Shown here in pieces: positions 22,048 to 44,676 of a stretch of 64,000 bases of DNA; the stretch's first letter is position 1; each line of letters begins with the position of its first letter. The position numbers and the translations under genes are program-made. The notes under the pieces are model-generated. The model ran no database searches. It saw nothing but the letters and a program-made list of their open reading frames with translations, and was not told where the DNA came from. Location: positions 4,416,915 to 4,480,914 of the forward strand of contig OZ244804.1 of the NCBI GenBank assembly GCA_965220065.1, in the 5' to 3' direction. The stretch comes from Candidatus Poribacteria bacterium. GTDB taxonomy: Bacteria; Poribacteria; WGA-4E; WGA-3G.

Positions 22048-22121
22048 TGGGCGATGCTGGACTTGAACCAGCGACCTCTTGCATGTCAAGCAAACGCTCT
22101 AGCCACCTGAGCTAATCGCCC
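22048..22121 (-). tRNA. tRNA-Val (anticodon GAC).
   Basis: I folded the cloverleaf manually. The acceptor is GGGCGAT/ATCGCCC, the D-arm is GCTC...GAGC, the anticodon loop is TTGACAT and the T-loop is TTCAAGT. Confidence 0.85.
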
Positions 22122-22135
22122 ATCGGAGAAAAGAA

Positions 22136-22210
22136 TGGAGGTGGCGGTCGGAATCGAACCGACGAATAAGAGTTTTGCAGACTCTGGCCTTACCACTTGG
22201 CTACGCCACC
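22136..22210 (-). tRNA. tRNA-Cys (anticodon GCA), with encoded CCA.
   Basis: The acceptor is GGTGGCG/CGCCACC, the anticodon loop is CTGCAAA, the T-arm is GTCGG-TTCGATT-CCGAC and the discriminator is U. Confidence 0.85.
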
Positions 22211-22218
22211 ATAGAAGA

Positions 22219-22293
22219 TGGAGCGGGAGACGAGATTTGAACTCGCGACCTCCACCTTGGCAAGGTGGAGCTCTACCACTGAGCTACTCCCGC
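22219..22293 (-). tRNA. tRNA-Gly (anticodon GCC), with encoded CCA.
   Basis: The acceptor is GCGGGAG/CTCCCGC, the anticodon stem-loop is CCACC-TTGCCAA-GGTGG and the T-loop is TTCAAAT. Confidence 0.85.
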
Positions 22294-31605: not shown

Positions 31606-32598
31606 ATGAAAATCTTAGTCATCGGTGGGACGGGCAACATCAGTCGTGGGATTGTTGCCGCGCTGCAAAACCAGAACCATGAAGTCGTCCTATTCAACCG
31701 CGGACAACACGCCGATCCGCCACCTCCAGATGTCCGTGTCATTCATGGCGACCGAAAGAATCGTGAGGATTTCGAGGCGAAAGTCGGTGCCGAAGAATGG
31801 GGTGCAGTGATTGATATGATTAGTTTCAACGCCGAGGATGCCGCCTCCGCGCTCCGCGCATGTCAGGGACGCGTTGGACATTTCGTTCACTGCTCGACGG
31901 TGATGACCTACGGACCGCCGTTCAGCGGGATTAATCTCCCAGAGACGGCACCGTTGCAAGGCACATCGGGCTATGGACTCGGCAAAATCGAAGCGGATAA
32001 CCTCCTATTGGACGCTCACACGCGCGACGGGTTTCCCGTAACCATTTTCAAGCCGTCCTATACACACGGTCCGGGCATGAACCTACATCGACAGGTGGGT
32101 GGAGACGGCAGTTGGATTGATCGGTTACGGAAGGGGAAACCGATCCTCTCCGCAGGTGATGGACTGAATTATTTTCAATTCCTGTCATCTCGCGACGCCG
32201 GAATTGCGTTTACAGAAGTACTCGGTAGATCTGACTGCTTCGGTGAAATATACAACATCGTTCATCCGCAGGCGCGAACGTGGGACGAGTGGCACCGTGC
32301 CGCGGCGGCGGCACTCGGCGTTGACATAGAGATTGTGCATGTATCCCAAGAGACACTCATCGCGATGGCACCTGAACGGTTTAGCGGTTTGCGGGGCAAC
32401 TTCGGGCATACCCAAATCTATAGCCACGAGAAACTCGCAACAGTATTATCTGAATTTACGCCACAGGTTCCGGTTACAGAAAGTGTCGCGGAAAACATCG
32501 CGTGGATGGACAAACACAATCTGGTTCCAGATAGCGATGCAGACGATCTGGAGGATCAGGTTATTGAGACGGTTCGCAATCTACCGCGTATTCGGTAG
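31606..32598 (+). CDS. NAD-dependent epimerase/dehydratase (extended SDR) family protein.
   Basis: It has the MKILVIGGTGNISRGIV Rossmann motif in a 330-aa protein. Confidence 0.75.
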   Translation: MKILVIGGTGNISRGIVAALQNQNHEVVLFNRGQHADPPPPDVRVIHGDRKNREDFEAKVGAEEWGAVIDMISFNAEDAASALRACQGRVGHFVHCSTVMTYGPPFSGINLPETAPLQGTSGYGLGKIEADNLLLDAHTRDGFPVTIFKPSYTHGPGMNLHRQVGGDGSWIDRLRKGKPILSAGDGLNYFQFLSSRDAGIAFTEVLGRSDCFGEIYNIVHPQARTWDEWHRAAAAALGVDIEIVHVSQETLIAMAPERFSGLRGNFGHTQIYSHEKLATVLSEFTPQVPVTESVAENIAWMDKHNLVPDSDADDLEDQVIETVRNLPRIR

Positions 32599-32612
32599 GA
32601 CAGAGGTGAAAC

Positions 32613-33425
32613 ATGATACAAATCAAATCAGCGTTGGATTCAGAGAGGCTTGATGTTGTCGAAAACGACCTCCGCGAAGTCGGTTTCCATGTCATTGAGA
32701 ATGTGATTACCGACGAAGAGGCAGACGCAGCGCGCGAGGTAATCTGGAAATTAATCGAAGAGGATATTGCCAACGGATATGACCACAGTTACGGCGACGG
32801 CAAAATCCGTCGTGTCTGGGCAATCGTTGGGAAATCCCCAATCTTCCGCTATTTCATCCAGCACCCGACCGTCGTGGCAGTATGGAAACGGATGCTCGGT
32901 GAGGATGTCATCGCTTCCACATTTACAGCGAATATCGTTGGACCCGGTGCACCCGCAGGCGGTTGGCATATCGACTATCCGTATTGGGCGATGCAATCGC
33001 CGTTCCCGTCCGGTTCGTTGACGGGACAGACGGTCTGGATGTTAGACGATTTCACGGAAGAGAACGGGGCAACGGCGTGTATTCCAGAGTCACACAAAAC
33101 GCTCCGTCGTCCGGAGTTGGGAGAAGCCGAGGGACTTGAGATGAGCATCGCTGTTGCACCGAAAGGCTCTATCATGTTCACGAACGGTGCGATCTGGCAT
33201 CAGTCGCGGGCGAACCTAACGGACACACCCCGCGTCGGACTGCTCGGTATGTATAACAGATCGGTCATTTACCCGCAGGAGGATATGCCTCGGCAGTTGA
33301 CTGATGCCGAGTTAGCAGGTGAGAGCGATGTCTTAAAGCAGTTGTTGGGCAGAAATATCCAGTTTCGCGATCCAGATCACGCGCAAAATTGGCATCGCAC
33401 GGACGCAGGGTTTCGCGAAGCGTAG
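32613..33425 (+). CDS. Phytanoyl-CoA dioxygenase (PhyH) family oxygenase, second copy.
   Basis: The iron-binding context is ...GGWHIDYPYW... and ...GAIWHQSRANL.... Length is 270 aa. Confidence 0.7.
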   Translation: MIQIKSALDSERLDVVENDLREVGFHVIENVITDEEADAAREVIWKLIEEDIANGYDHSYGDGKIRRVWAIVGKSPIFRYFIQHPTVVAVWKRMLGEDVIASTFTANIVGPGAPAGGWHIDYPYWAMQSPFPSGSLTGQTVWMLDDFTEENGATACIPESHKTLRRPELGEAEGLEMSIAVAPKGSIMFTNGAIWHQSRANLTDTPRVGLLGMYNRSVIYPQEDMPRQLTDAELAGESDVLKQLLGRNIQFRDPDHAQNWHRTDAGFREA

Positions 33426-33470
33426 GGACAAGCGTTCGGTTCCCTGTAGGAGGGATCTCCGAATCCCGAC
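33423..33470. repeat. Small dispersed repeat TAGGGACA...GGAGGRATCTCCGAATCCCGAC, overlapping the stop codon.
   Basis: A second copy lies at 57543-57587, also overlapping a + strand stop codon (TAG). It contains a GGAG-n-CTCC hairpin. Confidence 0.55.
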
Positions 33471-33619
33471 TTCTTCTATGGGAACGATTTCCTGATCGCG
33501 ACTCACGGTTTCATGAAATGGGAACTCAGATCGGAAACTGGATTCTCTAATAATATAGATAGGTTTCGCTGAACACTTTGCTATAATGTATTATTGTTTC
33601 AGATGTAAGGAGGGCATTT

Positions 33620-34666
33620 ATGCCAGTTGTATCTCATGATGTTTTGAGAAAGTTTGTGTATGACATATATCGCGGGGCGGGTGGTACGGAGGAAGATGCC
33701 CGTATCGTCAGTGACCACGTTGTCGATTCTAATCTCGTCGGACACGATTCACACGGCGTCATCAACGCGCCGAACTACATCGGGGGGATGGAAGGCGGTC
33801 CCGCCGCAGATAAGATGGAGATTGTCAGAGAAAGTGGTGCCGCCACCGTCATCAATGCCAACGGCGCACTCGGGATGGTTGCCGCCCGTAAAGCGATGGA
33901 GATGGCTATTGAAAAAGCGGAAAGTTGCACGATCGGTGCGGTCGGCTTGCATCGGTGTGGGCACGCAGGACGGATGGGAGAATATCCGCCAATCGCTGCC
34001 CGTGCTGGCATGATCGGGATCGTTCTGCTCAACGGTGGTGGACGTTTCATGCATCCGCACGGTGGTACCTCTCGGAGACTGCCCCCGAATCCGATTGCGA
34101 TCTCAGTGCCGCGTCAGGGGGGTGAACCGCTTCTCCTTGATATGACACTCAGCGTTGTCGCGGGTGGAAAACTGCTCGTCCAGACGGCGCGCGGTGAGCC
34201 GATACCGGAAGGCTGGATGATAGATGCCGAAGGTCAACCGCTCACAGATCCGAATGCGTTTCGTGAACGTCCGCAGGACACAGCCGTTATGCCACTCGGT
34301 GGTTTTCAGTTCGGGCATAAAGGGTTCGGACTCGGTGTGATGATAGATGCTATCGCTGGCGGACTTTCTTGGGCAGGATGTAGTCGTGAACAACCGACCC
34401 GCGGCGCAAGTGGCATTGTGATGTTCGCAATTAAAATCGGGGATTTCATCGATTTAGCAGACTATGAACAGGAGATCGCATATCTTGCGGAGTGGGTGAA
34501 GTCATCCGCTCGGTTGCCCGGTGTTGATGAAATCTATGTACCTGGAGAGTTTGAGGAACGGAGCCGTGAGAAACGCCTGTGTGAAGGGATACCCATAGAG
34601 GAGCCGACTTGGAATCGCCTCGTTGAAGCCGCAGAACGTTTTGATGTTGCGGTACCCAGTTTCTAA
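33620..34666 (+). CDS. Ldh_2 family oxidoreductase, paralog 3.
   Basis: It has the VGHDSHGV motif and is collinear with the other two paralogs at 9831-11984. Confidence 0.75.
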   Translation: MPVVSHDVLRKFVYDIYRGAGGTEEDARIVSDHVVDSNLVGHDSHGVINAPNYIGGMEGGPAADKMEIVRESGAATVINANGALGMVAARKAMEMAIEKAESCTIGAVGLHRCGHAGRMGEYPPIAARAGMIGIVLLNGGGRFMHPHGGTSRRLPPNPIAISVPRQGGEPLLLDMTLSVVAGGKLLVQTARGEPIPEGWMIDAEGQPLTDPNAFRERPQDTAVMPLGGFQFGHKGFGLGVMIDAIAGGLSWAGCSREQPTRGASGIVMFAIKIGDFIDLADYEQEIAYLAEWVKSSARLPGVDEIYVPGEFEERSREKRLCEGIPIEEPTWNRLVEAAERFDVAVPSF

Positions 34667-34778
34667 TGTAAGTCAACGCGAGTGGTTATCATAGACCAAT
34701 AACTGACAACCGAAAGGAAATCTGTGTAGTAGATTTCCGTACTGACTGCTGATTGCTAATACGCAACAGGAGAAAAAA

Positions 34779-35378
34779 ATGAGAATCTACGGTTTGTTTG
34801 TTTTGCTTATCGGCATTACGGGGTGTGCTGCACTGAATCAGCCTATTGGTGAAATGCCAGTCTCACGCCTCACTTGTGAGTCTAACCCGGAATTTGTAGA
34901 TGGGAATCTGGAGACAGAGAGTACATTCGCAGTGAGGGGGTTTGTCCGAAAAGCGTATCTACTGCACGAGGGTGAGGGACGGCGGCTCGCCTATGCACAA
35001 CAGCGTTATATAACGCAGGTTGAAGGGCAACGCCGTACGGAGGCGATTATCAAACTGGACGTGCCTACCTATATTGCGTATGTGGAAGTCTATCCCGGCT
35101 CACGGCGGATCCAGAATTTCGCGATGATGACGACGACCGATGATCCGCCACGCTTTGATGTCGCCTTTGAACGAGTATCCGATAAGCAGCATCAGGACAT
35201 AGAAGGGTTAAACCCCGTGCGTTTTCGCATCGAGCGAGAAGTACTTTATCTACGAATGAGCGCAGACGGAATAGAGGACAGACAGAATTCCGTCCGAACC
35301 GCAAACTCAGGCGTTGAGATTCCACTGAAAGGTGCTTCCATCCGCGAAGTCAAATTTTACATCCGGCAGACGCCGTAA
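34779..35378 (+). CDS. Lipoprotein, member 1 of a tandem four-gene paralogous family; possibly a discoidin-like (galactose-binding-like) fold.
   Basis: The lipobox is LLIGITGCAAL. All four genes share the blocks SRLTCESNPEFVDGNLET, IKLDVPTYIAYVEVYPGS, PVRFRIEREVLYLRMSA and IPLKGASIREVKFY. An AGGAG Shine-Dalgarno is present. Confidence 0.65.
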   Translation: MRIYGLFVLLIGITGCAALNQPIGEMPVSRLTCESNPEFVDGNLETESTFAVRGFVRKAYLLHEGEGRRLAYAQQRYITQVEGQRRTEAIIKLDVPTYIAYVEVYPGSRRIQNFAMMTTTDDPPRFDVAFERVSDKQHQDIEGLNPVRFRIEREVLYLRMSADGIEDRQNSVRTANSGVEIPLKGASIREVKFYIRQTP

Positions 35379-35396
35379 CTAATAAGGAGTAAAAAA

Positions 35397-36089
35397 ATGA
35401 ATAAATGGGTTTTCAGCATTCTATTATTTTTGTCGTTCAGCCTCGCGGGTTGTGTGGGACTTCAAGGGAAATCGGGAACGGAAATTCTGCCATCGCGTTT
35501 GTCTTGGCTTCAGGACACGCCTATTGAGCAAATCGTATCTTCACGGTTGACCTGCGACACTCATCCCGAAATAGTCGATGGTAATTTGGAAACAGTCGGA
35601 ACTTTTGAAGTGCACGGAGATGTGAAAAAGCAGCATGATATCGTGGAGGGCGAGACGCGTTTCTACGGCAAAAGCCAGTATGTAACGAATCTGGGCGGAA
35701 CCATTCGAGGCGAGATTTTGGTTAAGCTGGAAAAGCCGATGTACGTAAGTATTGTTGAAGTCTACCCTGCGTCGCGCATCTCCAATTTGGCACTGAGCAC
35801 AGCCTTGGATGAATCCGAACGTCACTTCGGCCAATCCGGTACGGGATTCAAGCCTGTGCATGACAAACAGTATAGAGATATAGAAGGCACAAAACCGGTG
35901 AAATTCCAAGTGGGACGGGAACTGCTTTACCTACGCGTGACAGCAGATACAATGGCGGATCGGCGGAATGCCACGCGGTTTGATGACAGAGTCAGTGACG
36001 AAGGAATAGACATTCCTTTGAAAGGTGGTTCCATCCGTGAGATTAAACTCTACGGGCGACAACCGTTATATGGTAAAACCGAAAAATGA
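35397..36089 (+). CDS. Lipoprotein, member 2 of the tandem family.
   Basis: The lipobox is SLAGCVGL. Its blocks are SRLTCDTHPEIVDGNLETVGTFEV, VKLEKPMYVSIVEVYPAS, PVKFQVGRELLYLRVTAD and IPLKGGSIREIKLY. Confidence 0.65.
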   Translation: MNKWVFSILLFLSFSLAGCVGLQGKSGTEILPSRLSWLQDTPIEQIVSSRLTCDTHPEIVDGNLETVGTFEVHGDVKKQHDIVEGETRFYGKSQYVTNLGGTIRGEILVKLEKPMYVSIVEVYPASRISNLALSTALDESERHFGQSGTGFKPVHDKQYRDIEGTKPVKFQVGRELLYLRVTADTMADRRNATRFDDRVSDEGIDIPLKGGSIREIKLYGRQPLYGKTEK

Positions 36090-36691
36090 AGATGCGAATG
36101 TTCGGCGTTCTCTTGTTTTTGTTGTTCGGCGTTCTCGGATGCGCGCTGTTGCAAGGGTCTCCATCCGTCGAAATACCGGCTTCGCGCCTTTTCTGTGCAC
36201 AAAATCCTGAGATGGTGGATGGCGACTTGTCGACGATAGGTGCCTTTGCTCCACAGGGTTCAATCACAAAAGAGTTTGTGGTAAACAGGGTAAACAGAAG
36301 GTCCGCGCCTCGACAGTATCAGCGTCGAGTGAGAGGCAGTCTCAAAACGGAAACATTGATTAAACTGGACGCGCCAACCTATATCAAGTATATCGAAGTC
36401 TACCCCGCATCAACCATCCCCAACTTTGCTCTGGATACCACTGCCGAAGAGAAATCCCCGAAGTGGATGCTTTCGTTTGCGGCTGTGGAAGACAAACGTA
36501 CCCAGAGAGTGGAAGGTACATTGCCAGTAAGATTCCAAATTGAACGGGAAGTCCTTTATGTGCGATTGACGGCTAACGCATTGGAAGATTTAGATAATGT
36601 CGCGCACGGTAACGAAACAGGCGAATTGCGAATTCCGCTCAAAGGTGCCTCGATTCGAGAAGTTAAGTTTTTCGAGCGGCAGTCCTTTTGA
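36086..36691 (+). CDS. Lipoprotein, member 3 of the tandem family.
   Basis: The lipobox is GVLGCALL. Its blocks are SRLFCAQNPEMVDGDLSTIGAFA, IKLDAPTYIKYIEVYPAS, PVRFQIEREVLYVRLTA and IPLKGASIREVKFF. Its start overlaps the stop of member 2 by 4 nt (ATGA). Confidence 0.65.
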   Translation: MKMRMFGVLLFLLFGVLGCALLQGSPSVEIPASRLFCAQNPEMVDGDLSTIGAFAPQGSITKEFVVNRVNRRSAPRQYQRRVRGSLKTETLIKLDAPTYIKYIEVYPASTIPNFALDTTAEEKSPKWMLSFAAVEDKRTQRVEGTLPVRFQIEREVLYVRLTANALEDLDNVAHGNETGELRIPLKGASIREVKFFERQSF

Positions 36692-36738
36692 ATGTGTAAT
36701 GGCATCTTACAAGCGGCTGTCCGTGACGGAGGAATATC

Positions 36739-37455
36739 GTGAACGGAAAATGGACAACCTATAACTTTAGACGTATCTTGGAGAGGTCCCACTGTCTTGT
36801 GGGACTTGCGTTAATCTTCGGTCTTGCGGGATGTGCGATATTGCAAGAGACACCATCCATTGAAATAGCGTCTTCGCGTCTTTCCTGTGAGAGAAATCCT
36901 GAAATGGTAGATGGTAAATTGGAAACGGTAAGTGTCTTTGAGACAAGTGGAACTATCCGAAAAGGATTCGAGAGAGGTGGGAGCCAACGGCAGTATCAAC
37001 GTGAAGTGATAGGCAACTTGAAGACGGAAACCTTAATCAAATTGGACGCGCCGACATACATTGATTATATCGAAATCTATCCCGCCTCAACTATCCCTCG
37101 TTTGATTTTAGATACCACTACTGAAGAGAAGTCATCAAAGTGGTTGCTCTCGTTTGAGGCTGTTGAAGACCAGCGCGGCGAAAAGATCGTAGGCACGCAG
37201 CCAGTGAGGTTCCGGATTGGACGAAAGATGCTTTATCTGCGGTTAACGGCTTACGCATTGCAAGACTCGGAGAGTGTGGCGGTCTACAGCGAGGCTGCTA
37301 TTGAAGAGATGGAGGCTTCCCTCAAAGAGATGAACACGAGTCCAGAGATGACCGAGAGGGCGCGTCAACAGTGGCAGAAGCAGAGGAGAGAAGGGGAGAT
37401 GCAAATTCCACTTAAAGGGGCGGCGATCCGAGAAATTAAATTCTATGCAAGGTAA
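36739..37455 (+). CDS. Lipoprotein, member 4 of the tandem family, with a ~35-aa charged insertion.
   Basis: It uses a GTG start with a GGAGG Shine-Dalgarno, and the lipobox is GLAGCAIL. Its blocks are SRLSCERNPEMVDGKLETVSVFE, IKLDAPTYIDYIEIYPAS, PVRFRIGRKMLYLRLTA and IPLKGAAIREIKFY. The insertion EAAIEEMEASLKEMNTSPEMTERARQQWQKQRREGEM sits before the last block. Confidence 0.65.
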   Translation: MNGKWTTYNFRRILERSHCLVGLALIFGLAGCAILQETPSIEIASSRLSCERNPEMVDGKLETVSVFETSGTIRKGFERGGSQRQYQREVIGNLKTETLIKLDAPTYIDYIEIYPASTIPRLILDTTTEEKSSKWLLSFEAVEDQRGEKIVGTQPVRFRIGRKMLYLRLTAYALQDSESVAVYSEAAIEEMEASLKEMNTSPEMTERARQQWQKQRREGEMQIPLKGAAIREIKFYAR

Positions 37456-37684
37456 TAAAATTCGCTTGACTTTTGTTTTAGGTTCTTGTAAAATAAAAGT
37501 GATTAATGGGATTTATTCACAACAATTTCTGCTGGTACTGTTTGAAAATTTGCCAGTCGAGAAAGCAAATTGTGTGTAACTCCTAAAATTTGACATTTTT
37601 TCACAATTGCGTTAAGGTTAGACAGAACATACAAGGTGAAACCTATAGGTTTCCCATTTAAAAAGCCGGAGGATTAGAATCCGA

Positions 37685-40641: not shown

Positions 40642-40716
<75 letters not shown>

Positions 40717-41604: not shown

Positions 41605-44600
41605 ATGAAATTGAAAAAATATAACCCCTTGCAATCTTTGAGTCGTAAGTATCCGAAACTTGCGAGTTTCACCAAAGTAGCATCTTTCTTCTTCGTTGCT
41701 GTGTATATGGCAATAGTGGTTAACTTTGATGTCTCTGCGGCGATCACCGGAAAAATTTCTGGGGTAATCACCGCTGAAGAAACGGATTCCCCGCTTGCGA
41801 CTGTCACGGTAACACTCGTTGGTACAAGCACTACCGCGACAACGAACAGTGCTGGCTATTATGTTATGACCAACGTCCCACCCGGAAGTTATGATGTAAA
41901 GGTCGAGCTCACGGGTTATGCGGCAGAAACTGTAGCGGCGACAAGCGTGCTCGCCGGTCTTACGACAACGTTGGACTTTACCCTAAAGAGTACGGCTGTG
42001 CAACTTGAAGGTATAACGGTAACGGCTGTTAAGCCGCTAATTAAGAAAGATGTCACGCAGTCGACAAGAATCATTGAATCAGATAATATTGAGGCTATGC
42101 CCCGCGATACCGTGAATGGGATTTTACAAACCCTTCCTGGGGTTGCGGTGCTGAACTCAACCGGTTCAACGCATGTTCGCGGGGGTAGGTCAATGGAGAT
42201 TCGGTATCTCATTGATGGTATCCCGATTAATAATCCGATCAGCAGAAGTTTGGGGTTGAGTATCGGCACGAATTCCCTTGAGCAGATGGAGGTCATCACC
42301 GGTGGATTTAATGCGGAGCACGGTGATGCGCAATCCGGTATTGTGAATCTCATCACGAAGGTTGGAACGAATAAATTTTCTGGTAGAGTCCGATACCGAG
42401 TTGGACAGTGGGGGACGCACCACGGCGATCCGTTGTACGGTCCATGGCTTGATCCAGATAATGGATTTCGACCCGTTGCGATTGAACCCTTCAGAGGTAT
42501 CTTTTTTGGGCAACCCTACGACTATCAAAAGCCGTATCGCGGACGGGATGTCACGGTTGCAGAGTTAGCGGAACGCGAAGGCGACGAACAGGTCGTCTTT
42601 ACGGAGATTTTCCCCGGCGTATATGCCGACAGGACAGAAAACCCGCTCCAGCCCGTGATGGACCCAGAAACGGGTGAACCGCAGGTTAACCCCGATACGG
42701 GTGAACCGATTATGACGCGTCAACCTTATAAGGATGCCGATGGTACTGTTATCGACTATGAGAAGAAACAGGTTACTTTGTTAGACGGCTACGTCGTGGA
42801 TCTCGAACAGTATAAGGGATTGTTCAACGACACGAAAAAGTACGAGCTGTCTCCGAGCCATATCGGTGAATTCGCGCTCAGCGGACCGATATGGGGAAAT
42901 CGGTTGACGTTCGCTGTCTCCAGTCAGCTAAGTCGGAATCACAGTTTTTTTCCGAATAGTGGGGGAACGGGATATATCTTCCAAGGAAAGCTGAAGTTTG
43001 AAGTAACACCGAGTCTCAAACTCACTACAAGTGGGCTTTTCAATAGGTCGGAAGGTTACTCCTATGGGGGTTCGCTGCGCTTTTGGCCCAGTGCCGTTCC
43101 GGAGTCAAATTCAAACGCTCGGAATATGTCCGTGCGACTCTCACATAATATCAACTCTGGTACTTTCTATACGTTGACACTTGGGCAATTTCATCGTTCT
43201 GGTGAGGCACATCAACCCGGAAAGGTGTGGGATCCGTTGGAGAAGACGTTTGATGAAAACGCTTGGGATCCCGATAAATCCTTTGAGCAGAATCAGGAAG
43301 AAGGCAGAATCAGGAACCCACCCCAACAGGCATATAACGATACAACCTATTTAGTCGCCGGGGACAGCAATTCTTGGGGAACCAGCACTGCGACAACCTC
43401 AATCGCAAGAGCGGATTTTTCCAGCCAAGTTACGGCGAACCACCTGATCCAGACAGGCGTTGAGTTCTTGGGATACGATCTCTATAATCTCAGCACGACG
43501 AATTACGGAAGCTCCAACCTTTACATGGAGTACTACGATGTCCAACCGCAATCCTTGAGTATGTATCTCCAAGACAAGATGGAGTATGAAGGCATGATCG
43601 TCAACGCCGGGTTACGATATGACCTGTATAATCCATCTGGTGTTTCACCCCAAGACCCGTTTGATCCGCTCGAATTGAACGACGATGGCACCATCAAACT
43701 CGATAAAAGCACCCATAAAGTCGGACTCCCTATCATCAAAGATCCTGTTCAGGCTTCCACCAAACACATGATCGCCCCACGTCTCGGCATCTCCTTCCCG
43801 GTTACCGACCGATCGAAGTTGCACTTCACGTACGGGCATTACTATCAGATTCCACGAGGTGATGATCTCTACGAAAACCTCAATTTTGACATGCGGGGCG
43901 CAATCCGAAGAAGAGGGAATCCTGACTTAGATCCAGAGCGGACGATCGCTTATGAAGTCGGTATCATACGTCAATTCACCGATGACTTGACGATTGACAT
44001 CACCGGATTCACCAAGGATATTGACAAACTCGTCAATAGCGTACACGTTGACATTACCAACGATTATAGCTACTTCCTCAATAGTGAATTCGAGGGAATG
44101 CTCCACGGCATCTATGGTCGGGTGCAAGGGTTTGAACTCACGATTCGCAAATGGCGCACAGGTGGAAGTCCGGTTTCTGGACTGCTCAGTTATACCTATT
44201 CCGTCGCGAAGGGAAAAGGTTCCAGCCGAAATCTGGGCTATCTCACCTACTACCGGCAACAGCCTGACGTAACCGAAAGCCACCCGTTGGCATGGGATCA
44301 ACGTCACATTTTCTCTGGAATGTTGGACATCCAATTGCCATTTGATTCCTCTGTCAATCTGATTGGCAGGTATGGGAGCGGTTTGCCCTACACGCCGAAT
44401 CCGAGAGCACCCGTCAAACCCGACATCAACTCGAAGCGTTACCCGCCGACCTACAATGTGGATGCCCTTATCAGCAAACGGAGTCGGATTGGTGGGTTGA
44501 CTTATACCTTCTTTGCCGACATTCGGAACATCTTCAATACGAAGAATCTCGACGATATCTTAGATGCGGTGACCTATGACCGATACGGTATCCCGCTCAA

Positions 44601-44676
44601 CAGCCAAAAACATTCGCATCCGCTGTCGTGGAGTTCACCACGGTTGATTATGATGGGCGTGAGTCTGGATTTTTAG
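41605..44676 (+). CDS. TonB-dependent receptor-like outer-membrane beta-barrel with an N-terminal carboxypeptidase-regulatory-like domain.
   Basis: A signal/anchor is followed by a CarbopepD_reg-like segment (GVITAEETDSPLATVTVTLVG...GYYVMTNVPPGSYDV), a plug-like region and a long barrel ending in ...GVSLDF (terminal aromatic). Confidence 0.7.
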   Translation: MKLKKYNPLQSLSRKYPKLASFTKVASFFFVAVYMAIVVNFDVSAAITGKISGVITAEETDSPLATVTVTLVGTSTTATTNSAGYYVMTNVPPGSYDVKVELTGYAAETVAATSVLAGLTTTLDFTLKSTAVQLEGITVTAVKPLIKKDVTQSTRIIESDNIEAMPRDTVNGILQTLPGVAVLNSTGSTHVRGGRSMEIRYLIDGIPINNPISRSLGLSIGTNSLEQMEVITGGFNAEHGDAQSGIVNLITKVGTNKFSGRVRYRVGQWGTHHGDPLYGPWLDPDNGFRPVAIEPFRGIFFGQPYDYQKPYRGRDVTVAELAEREGDEQVVFTEIFPGVYADRTENPLQPVMDPETGEPQVNPDTGEPIMTRQPYKDADGTVIDYEKKQVTLLDGYVVDLEQYKGLFNDTKKYELSPSHIGEFALSGPIWGNRLTFAVSSQLSRNHSFFPNSGGTGYIFQGKLKFEVTPSLKLTTSGLFNRSEGYSYGGSLRFWPSAVPESNSNARNMSVRLSHNINSGTFYTLTLGQFHRSGEAHQPGKVWDPLEKTFDENAWDPDKSFEQNQEEGRIRNPPQQAYNDTTYLVAGDSNSWGTSTATTSIARADFSSQVTANHLIQTGVEFLGYDLYNLSTTNYGSSNLYMEYYDVQPQSLSMYLQDKMEYEGMIVNAGLRYDLYNPSGVSPQDPFDPLELNDDGTIKLDKSTHKVGLPIIKDPVQASTKHMIAPRLGISFPVTDRSKLHFTYGHYYQIPRGDDLYENLNFDMRGAIRRRGNPDLDPERTIAYEVGIIRQFTDDLTIDITGFTKDIDKLVNSVHVDITNDYSYFLNSEFEGMLHGIYGRVQGFELTIRKWRTGGSPVSGLLSYTYSVAKGKGSSRNLGYLTYYRQQPDVTESHPLAWDQRHIFSGMLDIQLPFDSSVNLIGRYGSGLPYTPNPRAPVKPDINSKRYPPTYNVDALISKRSRIGGLTYTFFADIRNIFNTKNLDDILDAVTYDRYGIPLNSQKHSHPLSWSSPRLIMMGVSLDF

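Follow-up and report, generated by a model that had tools for sequence, protein, structure and literature searches.

The stretch of DNA analysed here (the window, 64,000 nucleotides) comes from a sponge symbiont, a Candidatus Poribacteria bacterium, and carries, between an Ldh_2 gene and the phoH-ybeY-corC-recO genes, four consecutive lipoprotein genes laid out as follows.

34667..34778, + strand: intergenic leader from Ldh_2 to gene 1, with the Shine-Dalgarno sequence GGAG at 34769-34772
34779..35378, + strand: gene 1 (G1 class), 199 aa, ITGC lipobox, Cys16 at 34824-34826, one CBM32-like domain
35397..36089, + strand: gene 2 (G2 class), 230 aa, LAGC lipobox, Cys19 at 35451-35453
36086..36691, + strand: gene 3 (G3 class), 201 aa, VLGC lipobox, Cys19 at 36140-36142
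36739..37455, + strand: gene 4 (G4 class), 238 aa, GTG start, LAGC lipobox, Cys32 at 36832-36834
37456..37684, + strand: spacer of 229 bp before phoH, with TTGACT-17-TAAAAT at 37466-37494 (10/12 positions)

The four same-strand open reading frames of 199, 230, 201 and 238 aa appear in the ORF list at the positions given by a first-pass annotation, and the overlap it reported between genes 2 and 3 is read directly in the sequence at 36086-36089, where the ATG (36086-36088) and the TGA (36087-36089) share an ATGA; this overlap suggests that the two genes may be translationally coupled. A Shine-Dalgarno sequence (GGAG or GGAGG) precedes the start codon by 6-7 nt in genes 1, 2 and 4, with GGAGG standing upstream of the GTG of gene 4, and the arrangement of GGAG, 6-nt spacer and ATG at gene 1 is conserved in its orthologues. 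The gene 4 signal has a long n-region, and the GTG start is supported by the N-terminal extension kept in the orthologues P0069 and P0087. The promoter of the array probably lies in the 34667-34778 leader. The promoter scan found no consensus sigma-70 site in the gene 1 leader, and Rfam matched only tRNAs, none near the array and none in that leader. For the region as a whole, the promoter and terminator scan was at background (7 vs 4.9 expected and 5 vs 4.2, respectively). The best promoter-like site of the region is located in the spacer before phoH, so that phoH-ybeY-corC is probably a separate transcription unit. A functional link of the array to phoH-ybeY-corC was also considered and was rejected, since in divergent lineages the gene is found in three unrelated settings.

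Each product consists of a signal peptide, a conserved tether of about 15 residues and a single domain about 165 residues long, and each begins with the lipoprotein signal and lipobox that had been described for it. Throughout the family, x-x-G-C follows a hydrophobic stretch in 180 of 180 copies (81 arrays); most copies fit [LVI][ASTVI][GAS]C, and in a minority position -2 is M, Q, P or F. The +2 residue of the 180 copies is A in 151, V in 21, T in 6, N in 1 and I in 1, and never Asp. In E. coli, the Lol rule states that a +2 residue other than Asp favours sorting to the outer membrane, and by analogy the +2 residues of the family would favour outer-membrane sorting under this rule, which is unvalidated for Poribacteria. 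The tether of gene 2 is lengthened by an extra segment of 17 aa, LQGKSGTEILPSRLSW, that was found in 12 of the 27 G2-class copies. An obligatory disulfide formed by the conserved extra Cys was rejected, as this residue is Ser in 19 of the 180 copies and most of the proteins have no partner Cys.

The proposed paralogy of the four copies was borne out, each scoring 228-270 bits against the family HMM, far above chance, and the alignment of the window proteins recovered the four conserved blocks in identical order in all four. Genes 2-4 share 46-49% identity with gene 1, with 60 invariant columns (alignment A1), and gene 4 is closest to gene 3 (63% identity). Insertions and deletions cluster in the stretches that separate block 1 from block 2 and block 3 from block 4; the indel-rich segments cover roughly mature residues 37-62 and 147-162. 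The mean column entropy is 1.64 outside the strands versus 1.22 inside. Class-specific positions are few (14), only 2 of them separate at least three classes, and the 14 are not enriched in loops. The charged insertion of gene 4, estimated earlier at about 35 aa, is present and measures 32 aa.

37297..37392, + strand: G4-specific charged insertion AIEEMEASLKEMNTSPEMTERARQQWQKQRRE, 32 aa, in the loop that joins block 3 to the last beta-hairpin

The other three paralogues have a gap at this segment (A1), which is kept in the G4 orthologues of other species.

A search of 1.84 billion proteins yielded 53 representatives of the family, and every named member, as regards the lineage restriction that had been put up for checking, belongs to Candidatus Poribacteria. 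In 80 host-associated species the genes occupy one fixed slot, in which Ldh_2 is followed by 1-5 copies and then by phoH-ybeY-corC-recO. A gene-1-type (G1) copy is always the first in the array, the G2 class is optional and always second (26 copies), and each paralogue class is a stable lineage of orthologues, with the order of the classes fixed. A single copy is found in 15 of the host-associated species. The divergent members from outside sponges are single-copy genes with unrelated neighbours, in three different contexts. Within a lipoprotein family restricted to Poribacteria, the four genes are tandem paralogues. The ancestral form is the gene-1 type, which is present throughout the clade; the remaining types were produced by tandem duplications, at a single fixed locus, in the sponge- and coral-associated lineage. 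In two other species, mobile elements have inserted within the array. Our literature search found no account of this lipoprotein family.

The dN/dS of the four genes lies between 0.10 and 0.20 (median of 0.20 for gene 2 and 0.168 for gene 4), denoting purifying selection on each class, and the values for the flanking Ldh_2, PhoH, CorC and RecO are 0.03-0.07, so the array genes have a rate of evolution 2-6 times that of most flanking genes. The four genes are real and are kept by purifying selection. These data bear on the idea that the locus encodes a phase- or antigenically variable lipoprotein set, switched by slipped-strand mispairing or recombination. Such a set could be read from the several divergent lipoprotein paralogues in tandem, from an A7 tract that genes 1 and 2 have between Shine-Dalgarno sequence and ATG, and from the mobile elements in arrays elsewhere, but we regard it as highly improbable: the distance from Shine-Dalgarno sequence to ATG is constant in 78 G1 and 27 G2 orthologues (a comparison of species, not of populations), and across these 105 orthologues substitutions interrupt the A tract and its length stays unchanged. 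Moreover, the paralogue classes are stable, their order is fixed and each is under purifying selection, and we noticed no repeats or signatures of invertible elements. For the phase-specific surface decoration suggested in the first-pass annotation, we thus saw no sign of phase variation.

Structure prediction assigned to the proteins, with high confidence, an eight-stranded beta-sandwich (jelly-roll) of the galactose-binding-domain-like superfamily, which supports the F5/8 type C-like layout that had been recognised by eye. The fold resembles CBM32 and bacterial F5/8 type C domains, for example the NanJ CBM32 of C. perfringens (2v72), the GH31 CBM32-3 (4lks, 22% identity) and the LnbB-CBM32 of B. 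bifidum (9vak). By sequence, the family was undetectable as PF00754 with HMM or profile-profile comparison: PF00754 did not match the four window proteins or 35 diverse family members even at E<=10, and the proposed profile search, run with Pfam and NCBIfam on the same proteins, matched no characterised family and returned only noise (e.g. GrlR at E 0.2). Searches of PDB sequences with profiles A2 and A3 gave noise as well (NrdR 0.33, gamma carbonic anhydrase 2.1), and hhalign found no match to a single CBM32 sequence or to thin alignments of 2-7 sequences. Against a PF00754 domain profile of 119 sequences, a narrow one built from close relatives of one CBM32, the family alignments reached a probability of 2.1% (E 0.023), and the sole stretch aligned was PEiVDGdLxT with AvDGnxxT. 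Eukaryotic F5/8 C domains, the positive control, reached 95.5% against this bacterial profile. Since the family could be linked to PF00754 or CBM32 by none of the sequence methods, the homology rests on the predicted fold and on a three-residue motif.

That motif coincides with a putative calcium site, for which gene 3 provides the coordinates.

36218..36235, + strand: block-1 metal-site motif of gene 3, D27-G-D-L-S-T32 (mature numbering)
36659..36661, + strand: Glu174 (mature) of gene 3, IRE motif in the last beta-strand, proposed third calcium ligand

In the diverse alignment A3 the only invariant columns are P23, D27, T32 and E174, each kept in 179-180 of the 180 copies; D27 is present in 180 of 180 copies, T32 in 179 (with one Ser) and E174 in 179. 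The structural Ca2+ site of LnbB-CBM32 is formed by D804, T809 and E931, and its Thr is conserved across CBM32 (PMC12926856). The D-x4-T spacing of the family equals that of D804 and T809, and Glu174 corresponds by position to A930-E931 (PMC12926856). Judged from this correspondence of sequences, the Asp, Thr and Glu of the CBM32 structural Ca2+ site are invariant in the family and spaced as in CBM32, and the site itself is putative.

We consider a lipid-tethered, calcium-stabilised lectin-like binding module to be the most likely function of these proteins and give this reading about an even chance. After lipidation the proteins would be attached to a membrane face, either the periplasmic or the outer one, as Ca2+-stabilised lectin-like modules, and a ligand, most likely a glycan, would be bound by the variable loops opposite the Ca2+ site. 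These loops were placed at the apex from strand topology, not from coordinates; the sugar sites of CBM32 are made of variable apical loops (PMC5291390). As the paralogues differ mainly by loop indels, their multiplication would extend capture or adhesion to more ligands. A catalytic domain is absent from each protein and no CAZyme adjoins the genes in the window, in the 80 species or in the divergent lineages; lacking a catalytic domain and a fixed operon partner, the proteins would work by themselves, binding or tethering rather than serving as a component of an enzyme. In the host-associated clade the adjacent genes have housekeeping roles, and elsewhere the neighbours are unrelated; nothing among them points to glycans, and neither a CAZyme nor a SusC/D pair or transporter recurs beside the family in host-associated loci and divergent lineages. 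The nearest SusC-like TonB receptor lies 4 kb off, past recO, and has no link to the family in other lineages. A more specific version of the lectin reading, in which the family is a phylum-specific Ca2+-dependent outer-surface lectin, a fold-level relative of CBM32 past sequence detection, whose 2-5 ordered paralogues in the sponge- and coral-associated lineage serve as receptors for host-matrix glycans and so as a molecular determinant of host recognition or of retention in the sponge mesohyl, appears rather unlikely.

This fold is also used for binding between proteins: IFT25 (2yc2) and APC10/DOC (1jhj, 5a31_L) are such cases, and their structural scores are as good as those of the CBM32s. 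It is therefore possible, with a probability that we place well short of even, that the family consists of envelope-structural or protein-interaction lipoproteins docking in an IFT25- or APC10/DOC-like manner onto an envelope protein or a peptidoglycan-associated component, the gene-1 type being a phylum-specific housekeeping part and the extra copies its sub-functionalised variants. However, most of the top structural neighbours bind glycans, species carry anywhere from 1 to 5 copies, an unusual range for a structural part of fixed stoichiometry, and no conserved partner gene adjoins the family in any lineage. IFT25 and APC10/DOC are eukaryotic cytoplasmic protein-binding subunits of large complexes, have neither signal peptide nor lipid anchor and share 11-13% identity with the family. 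The proteins might also be host-matrix adhesins, in which surface discoidin-like domains attach to sponge collagen or spongin as eukaryotic discoidin-domain receptors do and the array has grown as an adaptation to sponge tissue. This is quite improbable in our estimate, because eukaryotic discoidin domains score below the bacterial CBM32s in the structural comparison, because 15 host-associated species manage with one copy, and because the family does not resemble eukaryotic F5/8 type C domains in sequence, which, with the control at 95.5%, leaves no sign of acquisition from the host. When all ORFs of the window and of the 80 loci were compared with a consensus F5/8 type C query, no ordinary discoidin domain turned up in the vicinity.

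For the lectin-like module that we favour, the known systems provide relatives that differ in several respects. Relative to CBM32, the Trp of DGxxxTxW is replaced (T-x3-F), an insertion of 20-30 residues separates blocks 1 and 2 except in short family members, and the proteins are stand-alone lipoproteins, not modules of a CAZyme, so that they fall outside the CAZy definition of a CBM, and sugar binding is a prediction. A non-enzymatic CBM32 that stands alone, YeCBM32 (2jd9), occurs in Yersinia enterocolitica; its sequence fits the bacterial F5/8 type C consensus. It is a soluble periplasmic protein that binds pectin fragments, is not known to have a lipid anchor and is encoded in a pectin-utilisation context, whereas the Poribacteria family carries a lipobox, is tandemly expanded and has no glycan-utilisation neighbours. 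The SusE/SusF-like lipoproteins of Bacteroidota, which bind glycans at the cell surface, such as BT2857 (7m1a/7m1b), are encoded in PULs beside SusC/SusD and usually have several tandem domains, in contrast to the single-domain Poribacteria proteins, which lie outside any PUL and are flanked by Ldh_2 and phoH-ybeY-corC-recO in 80 species. We describe a previously unnamed family whose predicted fold is of a familiar kind, and no new mechanism or kind of system.

A family labelled 'hypothetical' in every database thus gains a name and a testable hypothesis; it is conserved throughout an uncultivated phylum, one that dominates the microbiomes of many sponges. Its small, stable, single-domain proteins would suit expression and screening. 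Since a CBM32-type domain is recognisable here only by structure prediction, CAZy and Pfam censuses of glycan binding in symbionts miss the family. If the proteins are lectins, the 1-5 copies at a fixed locus would mark how the lineages engage host or dissolved glycans.

The four consecutive same-strand genes described in the first-pass annotation were found with exact coordinates in the ORF listing:

34779-35378, + strand: gene 1, 199 aa
35397-36089, + strand: gene 2, 230 aa
36086-36691, + strand: gene 3, 201 aa
36739-37455, + strand: gene 4, 238 aa, GTG start

Its further observations were fully reproduced in the DNA and in an alignment of the four paralogues. Each product carries a lipobox (ITGC, LAGC, VLGC and LAGC, respectively) closing a hydrophobic N-terminal signal, genes 2 and 3 share an ATGA at their junction, the four conserved blocks occur in the order described, and the charged insertion of gene 4, noted as ~35 aa, comprises 32 residues (37297-37392). 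Identity to gene 1 is 46-49% with 60 invariant columns, and genes 3 and 4 form the most similar pair (63% identity). A Shine-Dalgarno sequence (GGAG/GGAGG) lies 6-7 nt before the start of genes 1, 2 and 4. The tether of gene 2 has ~17 additional residues; this extra segment (16-17 residues, window 35460-35507, LQGKSGTEILPSRLSW) resembles the next one, LQDTPIEQIVSSRLTC. The coding stretches of the two match weakly (25/48 nt) and a repeated-SRL pattern occurs in 12 of 27 gene-2-type copies. By its sequence the segment looks like an old internal duplication doubling the tether length. The SRLxC motif contains a second Cys (mature Cys19 of gene 3, window 36194-36196, with an equivalent codon in genes 1, 2 and 4), which is kept in 160/180 copies and replaced by Ser in 19/180. 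Most mature family proteins lack a partner Cys, and the residue is probably a buried small residue, not part of a disulfide; a conserved unpaired Cys is unusual in an exported protein.

None of the four window proteins matched Pfam or NCBIfam even at E<=10, 35 diverse members scanned singly against Pfam gave no relevant match and profile searches of all PDB sequences returned noise only. Among 5.8 billion clustered proteins, a profile search retrieved 640 relatives; each is either unnamed or labelled 'hypothetical protein [Candidatus Poribacteria bacterium]', and a precomputed Pfam domain is absent from all of them. Furthermore, HMMER run exhaustively against 1.84 billion representatives clustered at 50% identity yielded only 53 proteins at E<=1e-3, the most divergent of which, where named, are from Poribacteria. 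The family is thus small and, to the extent of the public data, confined to one candidate phylum. This is a new sequence family, to which Pfam, NCBIfam and HH comparison are all blind.

The mature gene 3 protein was modelled with a pLDDT of 86.6 and a pTM of 0.79 (85-87 pLDDT for all five models); adding divergent members from the exhaustive HMMER search to the alignment much improved the model. Foldseek, an independent method, ranked CBM32s first (E 3e-6, probability 1.00), hence the discoidin-like jelly roll previously recognised by eye was right at the level of predicted structure. In the diverse alignment, the only invariant columns were P23, D27, T32 and E174 (mature gene-3 numbering). 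In a set of 180 copies from 81 arrays, P23 and D27 are kept in 180/180 and T32 and E174 in 179/180, the single exception at T32 being Ser. The structural Ca2+ of LnbB-CBM32 is hepta-coordinated; D804, T809 and E931 contribute through their side chains, N801, N806, T809 and A930 through their carbonyls, and the Thr of this site is conserved throughout CBM32, now and then as Ser (PMC12926856). The Poribacteria motif N-P-E-x-V-D-G-x-L-x-T has the identical D-x4-T spacing, and the invariant Glu lies in the last-strand IRE motif, like A930-E931 of LnbB-CBM32. We take this match, which is one of sequence pattern, to mean that the family has kept the canonical CBM32 metal site.

For comparison with PF00754, the seeds 4zxe DD1 and 2rva DD2 (PDB search) led to 120 annotated proteins, of which 118 were trimmed to the domain; the resulting profile of 119 sequences, including DD1, is narrow, consisting of relatives of a single CBM32. 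With hhalign the family alignments reached a probability of 2.1% (E 0.023) against this profile, only VDGxLxT being aligned, to AvDGnxxT, whereas in the positive control five C domains of eukaryotic factor V/VIII reached 95.5%. On sequence grounds the family cannot be filed under PF00754 with so narrow a profile, and full profile libraries might yet link the two. The family has the predicted fold, the metal-site residues and the order of the blocks in common with CBM32, but it falls outside the CAZy notion of a CBM because its proteins belong to no enzyme. CBM-like binders that stand alone or carry a lipid anchor are already known (YeCBM32, SusE/F), and the fold and general kind of the family are very familiar.

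In a scan of one genome per GTDB species, relatives were found solely in Poribacteria MAGs, at 80 loci. Every locus of sufficient extent shows the same slot on one strand: (epimerase-PhyH-)Ldh_2, 1-5 family copies, then phoH-ybeY-corC-recO. One copy was counted at 15 loci, two at 41, three at 16, four at 7 and five at 1, a few loci ending early at contig ends. Clustering of the 180 copies gave ordered classes: the gene-1 type is present as exactly one leading copy in 81/81 arrays, the gene-2 type is second wherever found (26 arrays), gene-3/4 types take the final position(s) (60 copies) and a fifth class is the second copy of a divergent sub-clade (12 copies). Written in cluster labels, the array of the window reads 1-2-4-4, an arrangement seen in 8 species. 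Mobile elements break the arrays of two species: copies 3 and 4 are separated by an RRXRR protein with a Tn5-type transposase in one (locus L043:10436-13009), copies 2 and 3 by an IS605 OrfB/TnpB in the other (L060:9459-10679, - strand); an FGE-sulfatase fragment lies between array and phoH at L027:10050-10616 (- strand). The array slot seems a plastic spot within an otherwise rigidly syntenic region. Around the array, the window contains:

22048-22293, - strand: cluster of three tRNA genes
31606-34666: NAD-dependent epimerase, PhyH-family dioxygenase and Ldh_2-family dehydrogenase, upstream of the array
34716-34738: hairpin with 8-bp stem (GGAAATCT...AGATTTCC) in the leader that separates Ldh_2 from gene 1
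40642-40716, + strand: single tRNA gene in the corC/recO gap
41605-44676: TonB-dependent receptor with N-terminal CarboxypepD_reg and Plug, of SusC-like architecture

The epimerase, PhyH, Ldh_2 order is kept in most host-associated loci, and PhyH is reported to outnumber every other Pfam family in the genomes of Poribacteria (PMC3909097). The terminator scan scored the leader hairpin on the minus strand only, where no gene ends. The SusC-like receptor lies 4 kb downstream of the array, past recO. Divergent members, from hydrothermal-vent and other non-sponge metagenomes, are single-copy and occur in three unrelated contexts (xseAB with FG-GAP/ASPIC; RNase J with a periplasmic binding protein; 2-hydroxyacid dehydrogenase). 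Two of the contexts from divergent Poribacteria, otherwise unrelated, have a DUF6785 protein of ~640-650 aa close to the single-copy member (L081:2220-4148, L086:14080-16032), which may be coincidence. That no neighbour is conserved argues against an operon partner or a link to phoH-ybeY-corC. We take a stand-alone lipoprotein gene to be ancestral to the phylum, with later tandem expansion at a single locus of the host-associated lineage.

Genes 1-4 are real and under purifying selection. Median Nei-Gojobori dN/dS between window genes and their orthologues was 0.105, 0.20, 0.147 and 0.168 for genes 1-4, respectively, compared with 0.030 (Ldh_2), 0.055 (PhyH), 0.056 (PhoH), 0.061 (CorC), 0.071 (RecO) and 0.135 (YbeY). 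The four genes thus evolve 2-6x faster than most neighbours, with no gene-wide positive selection by this measure. Conservation is concentrated in the strands (mean column entropy 1.22 versus 1.64 elsewhere), and indels fall between blocks 1 and 2, a segment of 20-30 residues in the window proteins that is nearly missing from short members, and between blocks 3 and 4, where the gene-4 insertion lies. Since the Ca2+-ligand residues stand just ahead of the first core strand and where the last one begins, both indel-rich loops should, given antiparallel topology, lie at the sandwich end opposite the Ca2+ site, the end at which variable loops make up CBM32 sugar sites (PMC5291390). The A7 tract between Shine-Dalgarno sequence and ATG of genes 1 and 2 was constant in length among 105 orthologues; the distance from Shine-Dalgarno sequence to ATG is fixed, and A-to-G substitutions interrupt the tract. 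Because of this fixed spacing and the stable classes in fixed order, a phase-variable surface set, or the phase-specific decoration suggested earlier, is unlikely, and we give phase variation very little weight.

Most structural neighbours are glycan binders, which speaks for a lectin-like, glycan-binding role; we give this role about an even chance. A protein-interaction or envelope-structural role is distinctly less probable; IFT25 and DOC domains score as well as CBM32s do, and the universal gene-1 type and the housekeeping context also speak for it. Adhesion to host-matrix proteins is improbable. In E. coli, a residue other than Asp at lipobox position +2 directs a lipoprotein to the outer membrane; this residue is never Asp in the family, which by that rule would be sorted there. 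The proteins would be lipidated and sit on a membrane face, attached through a conserved tether of ~15 residues; Ca2+ would stabilise them, a ligand would be bound through the variable apical loops, and the paralogues would differ in the surface they present for binding. Specialists in sponge symbiosis or in CBMs would find this useful but unsurprising: what it opens is not a long-standing question but a straightforward path for experiments (expression, addition of calcium, arrays).
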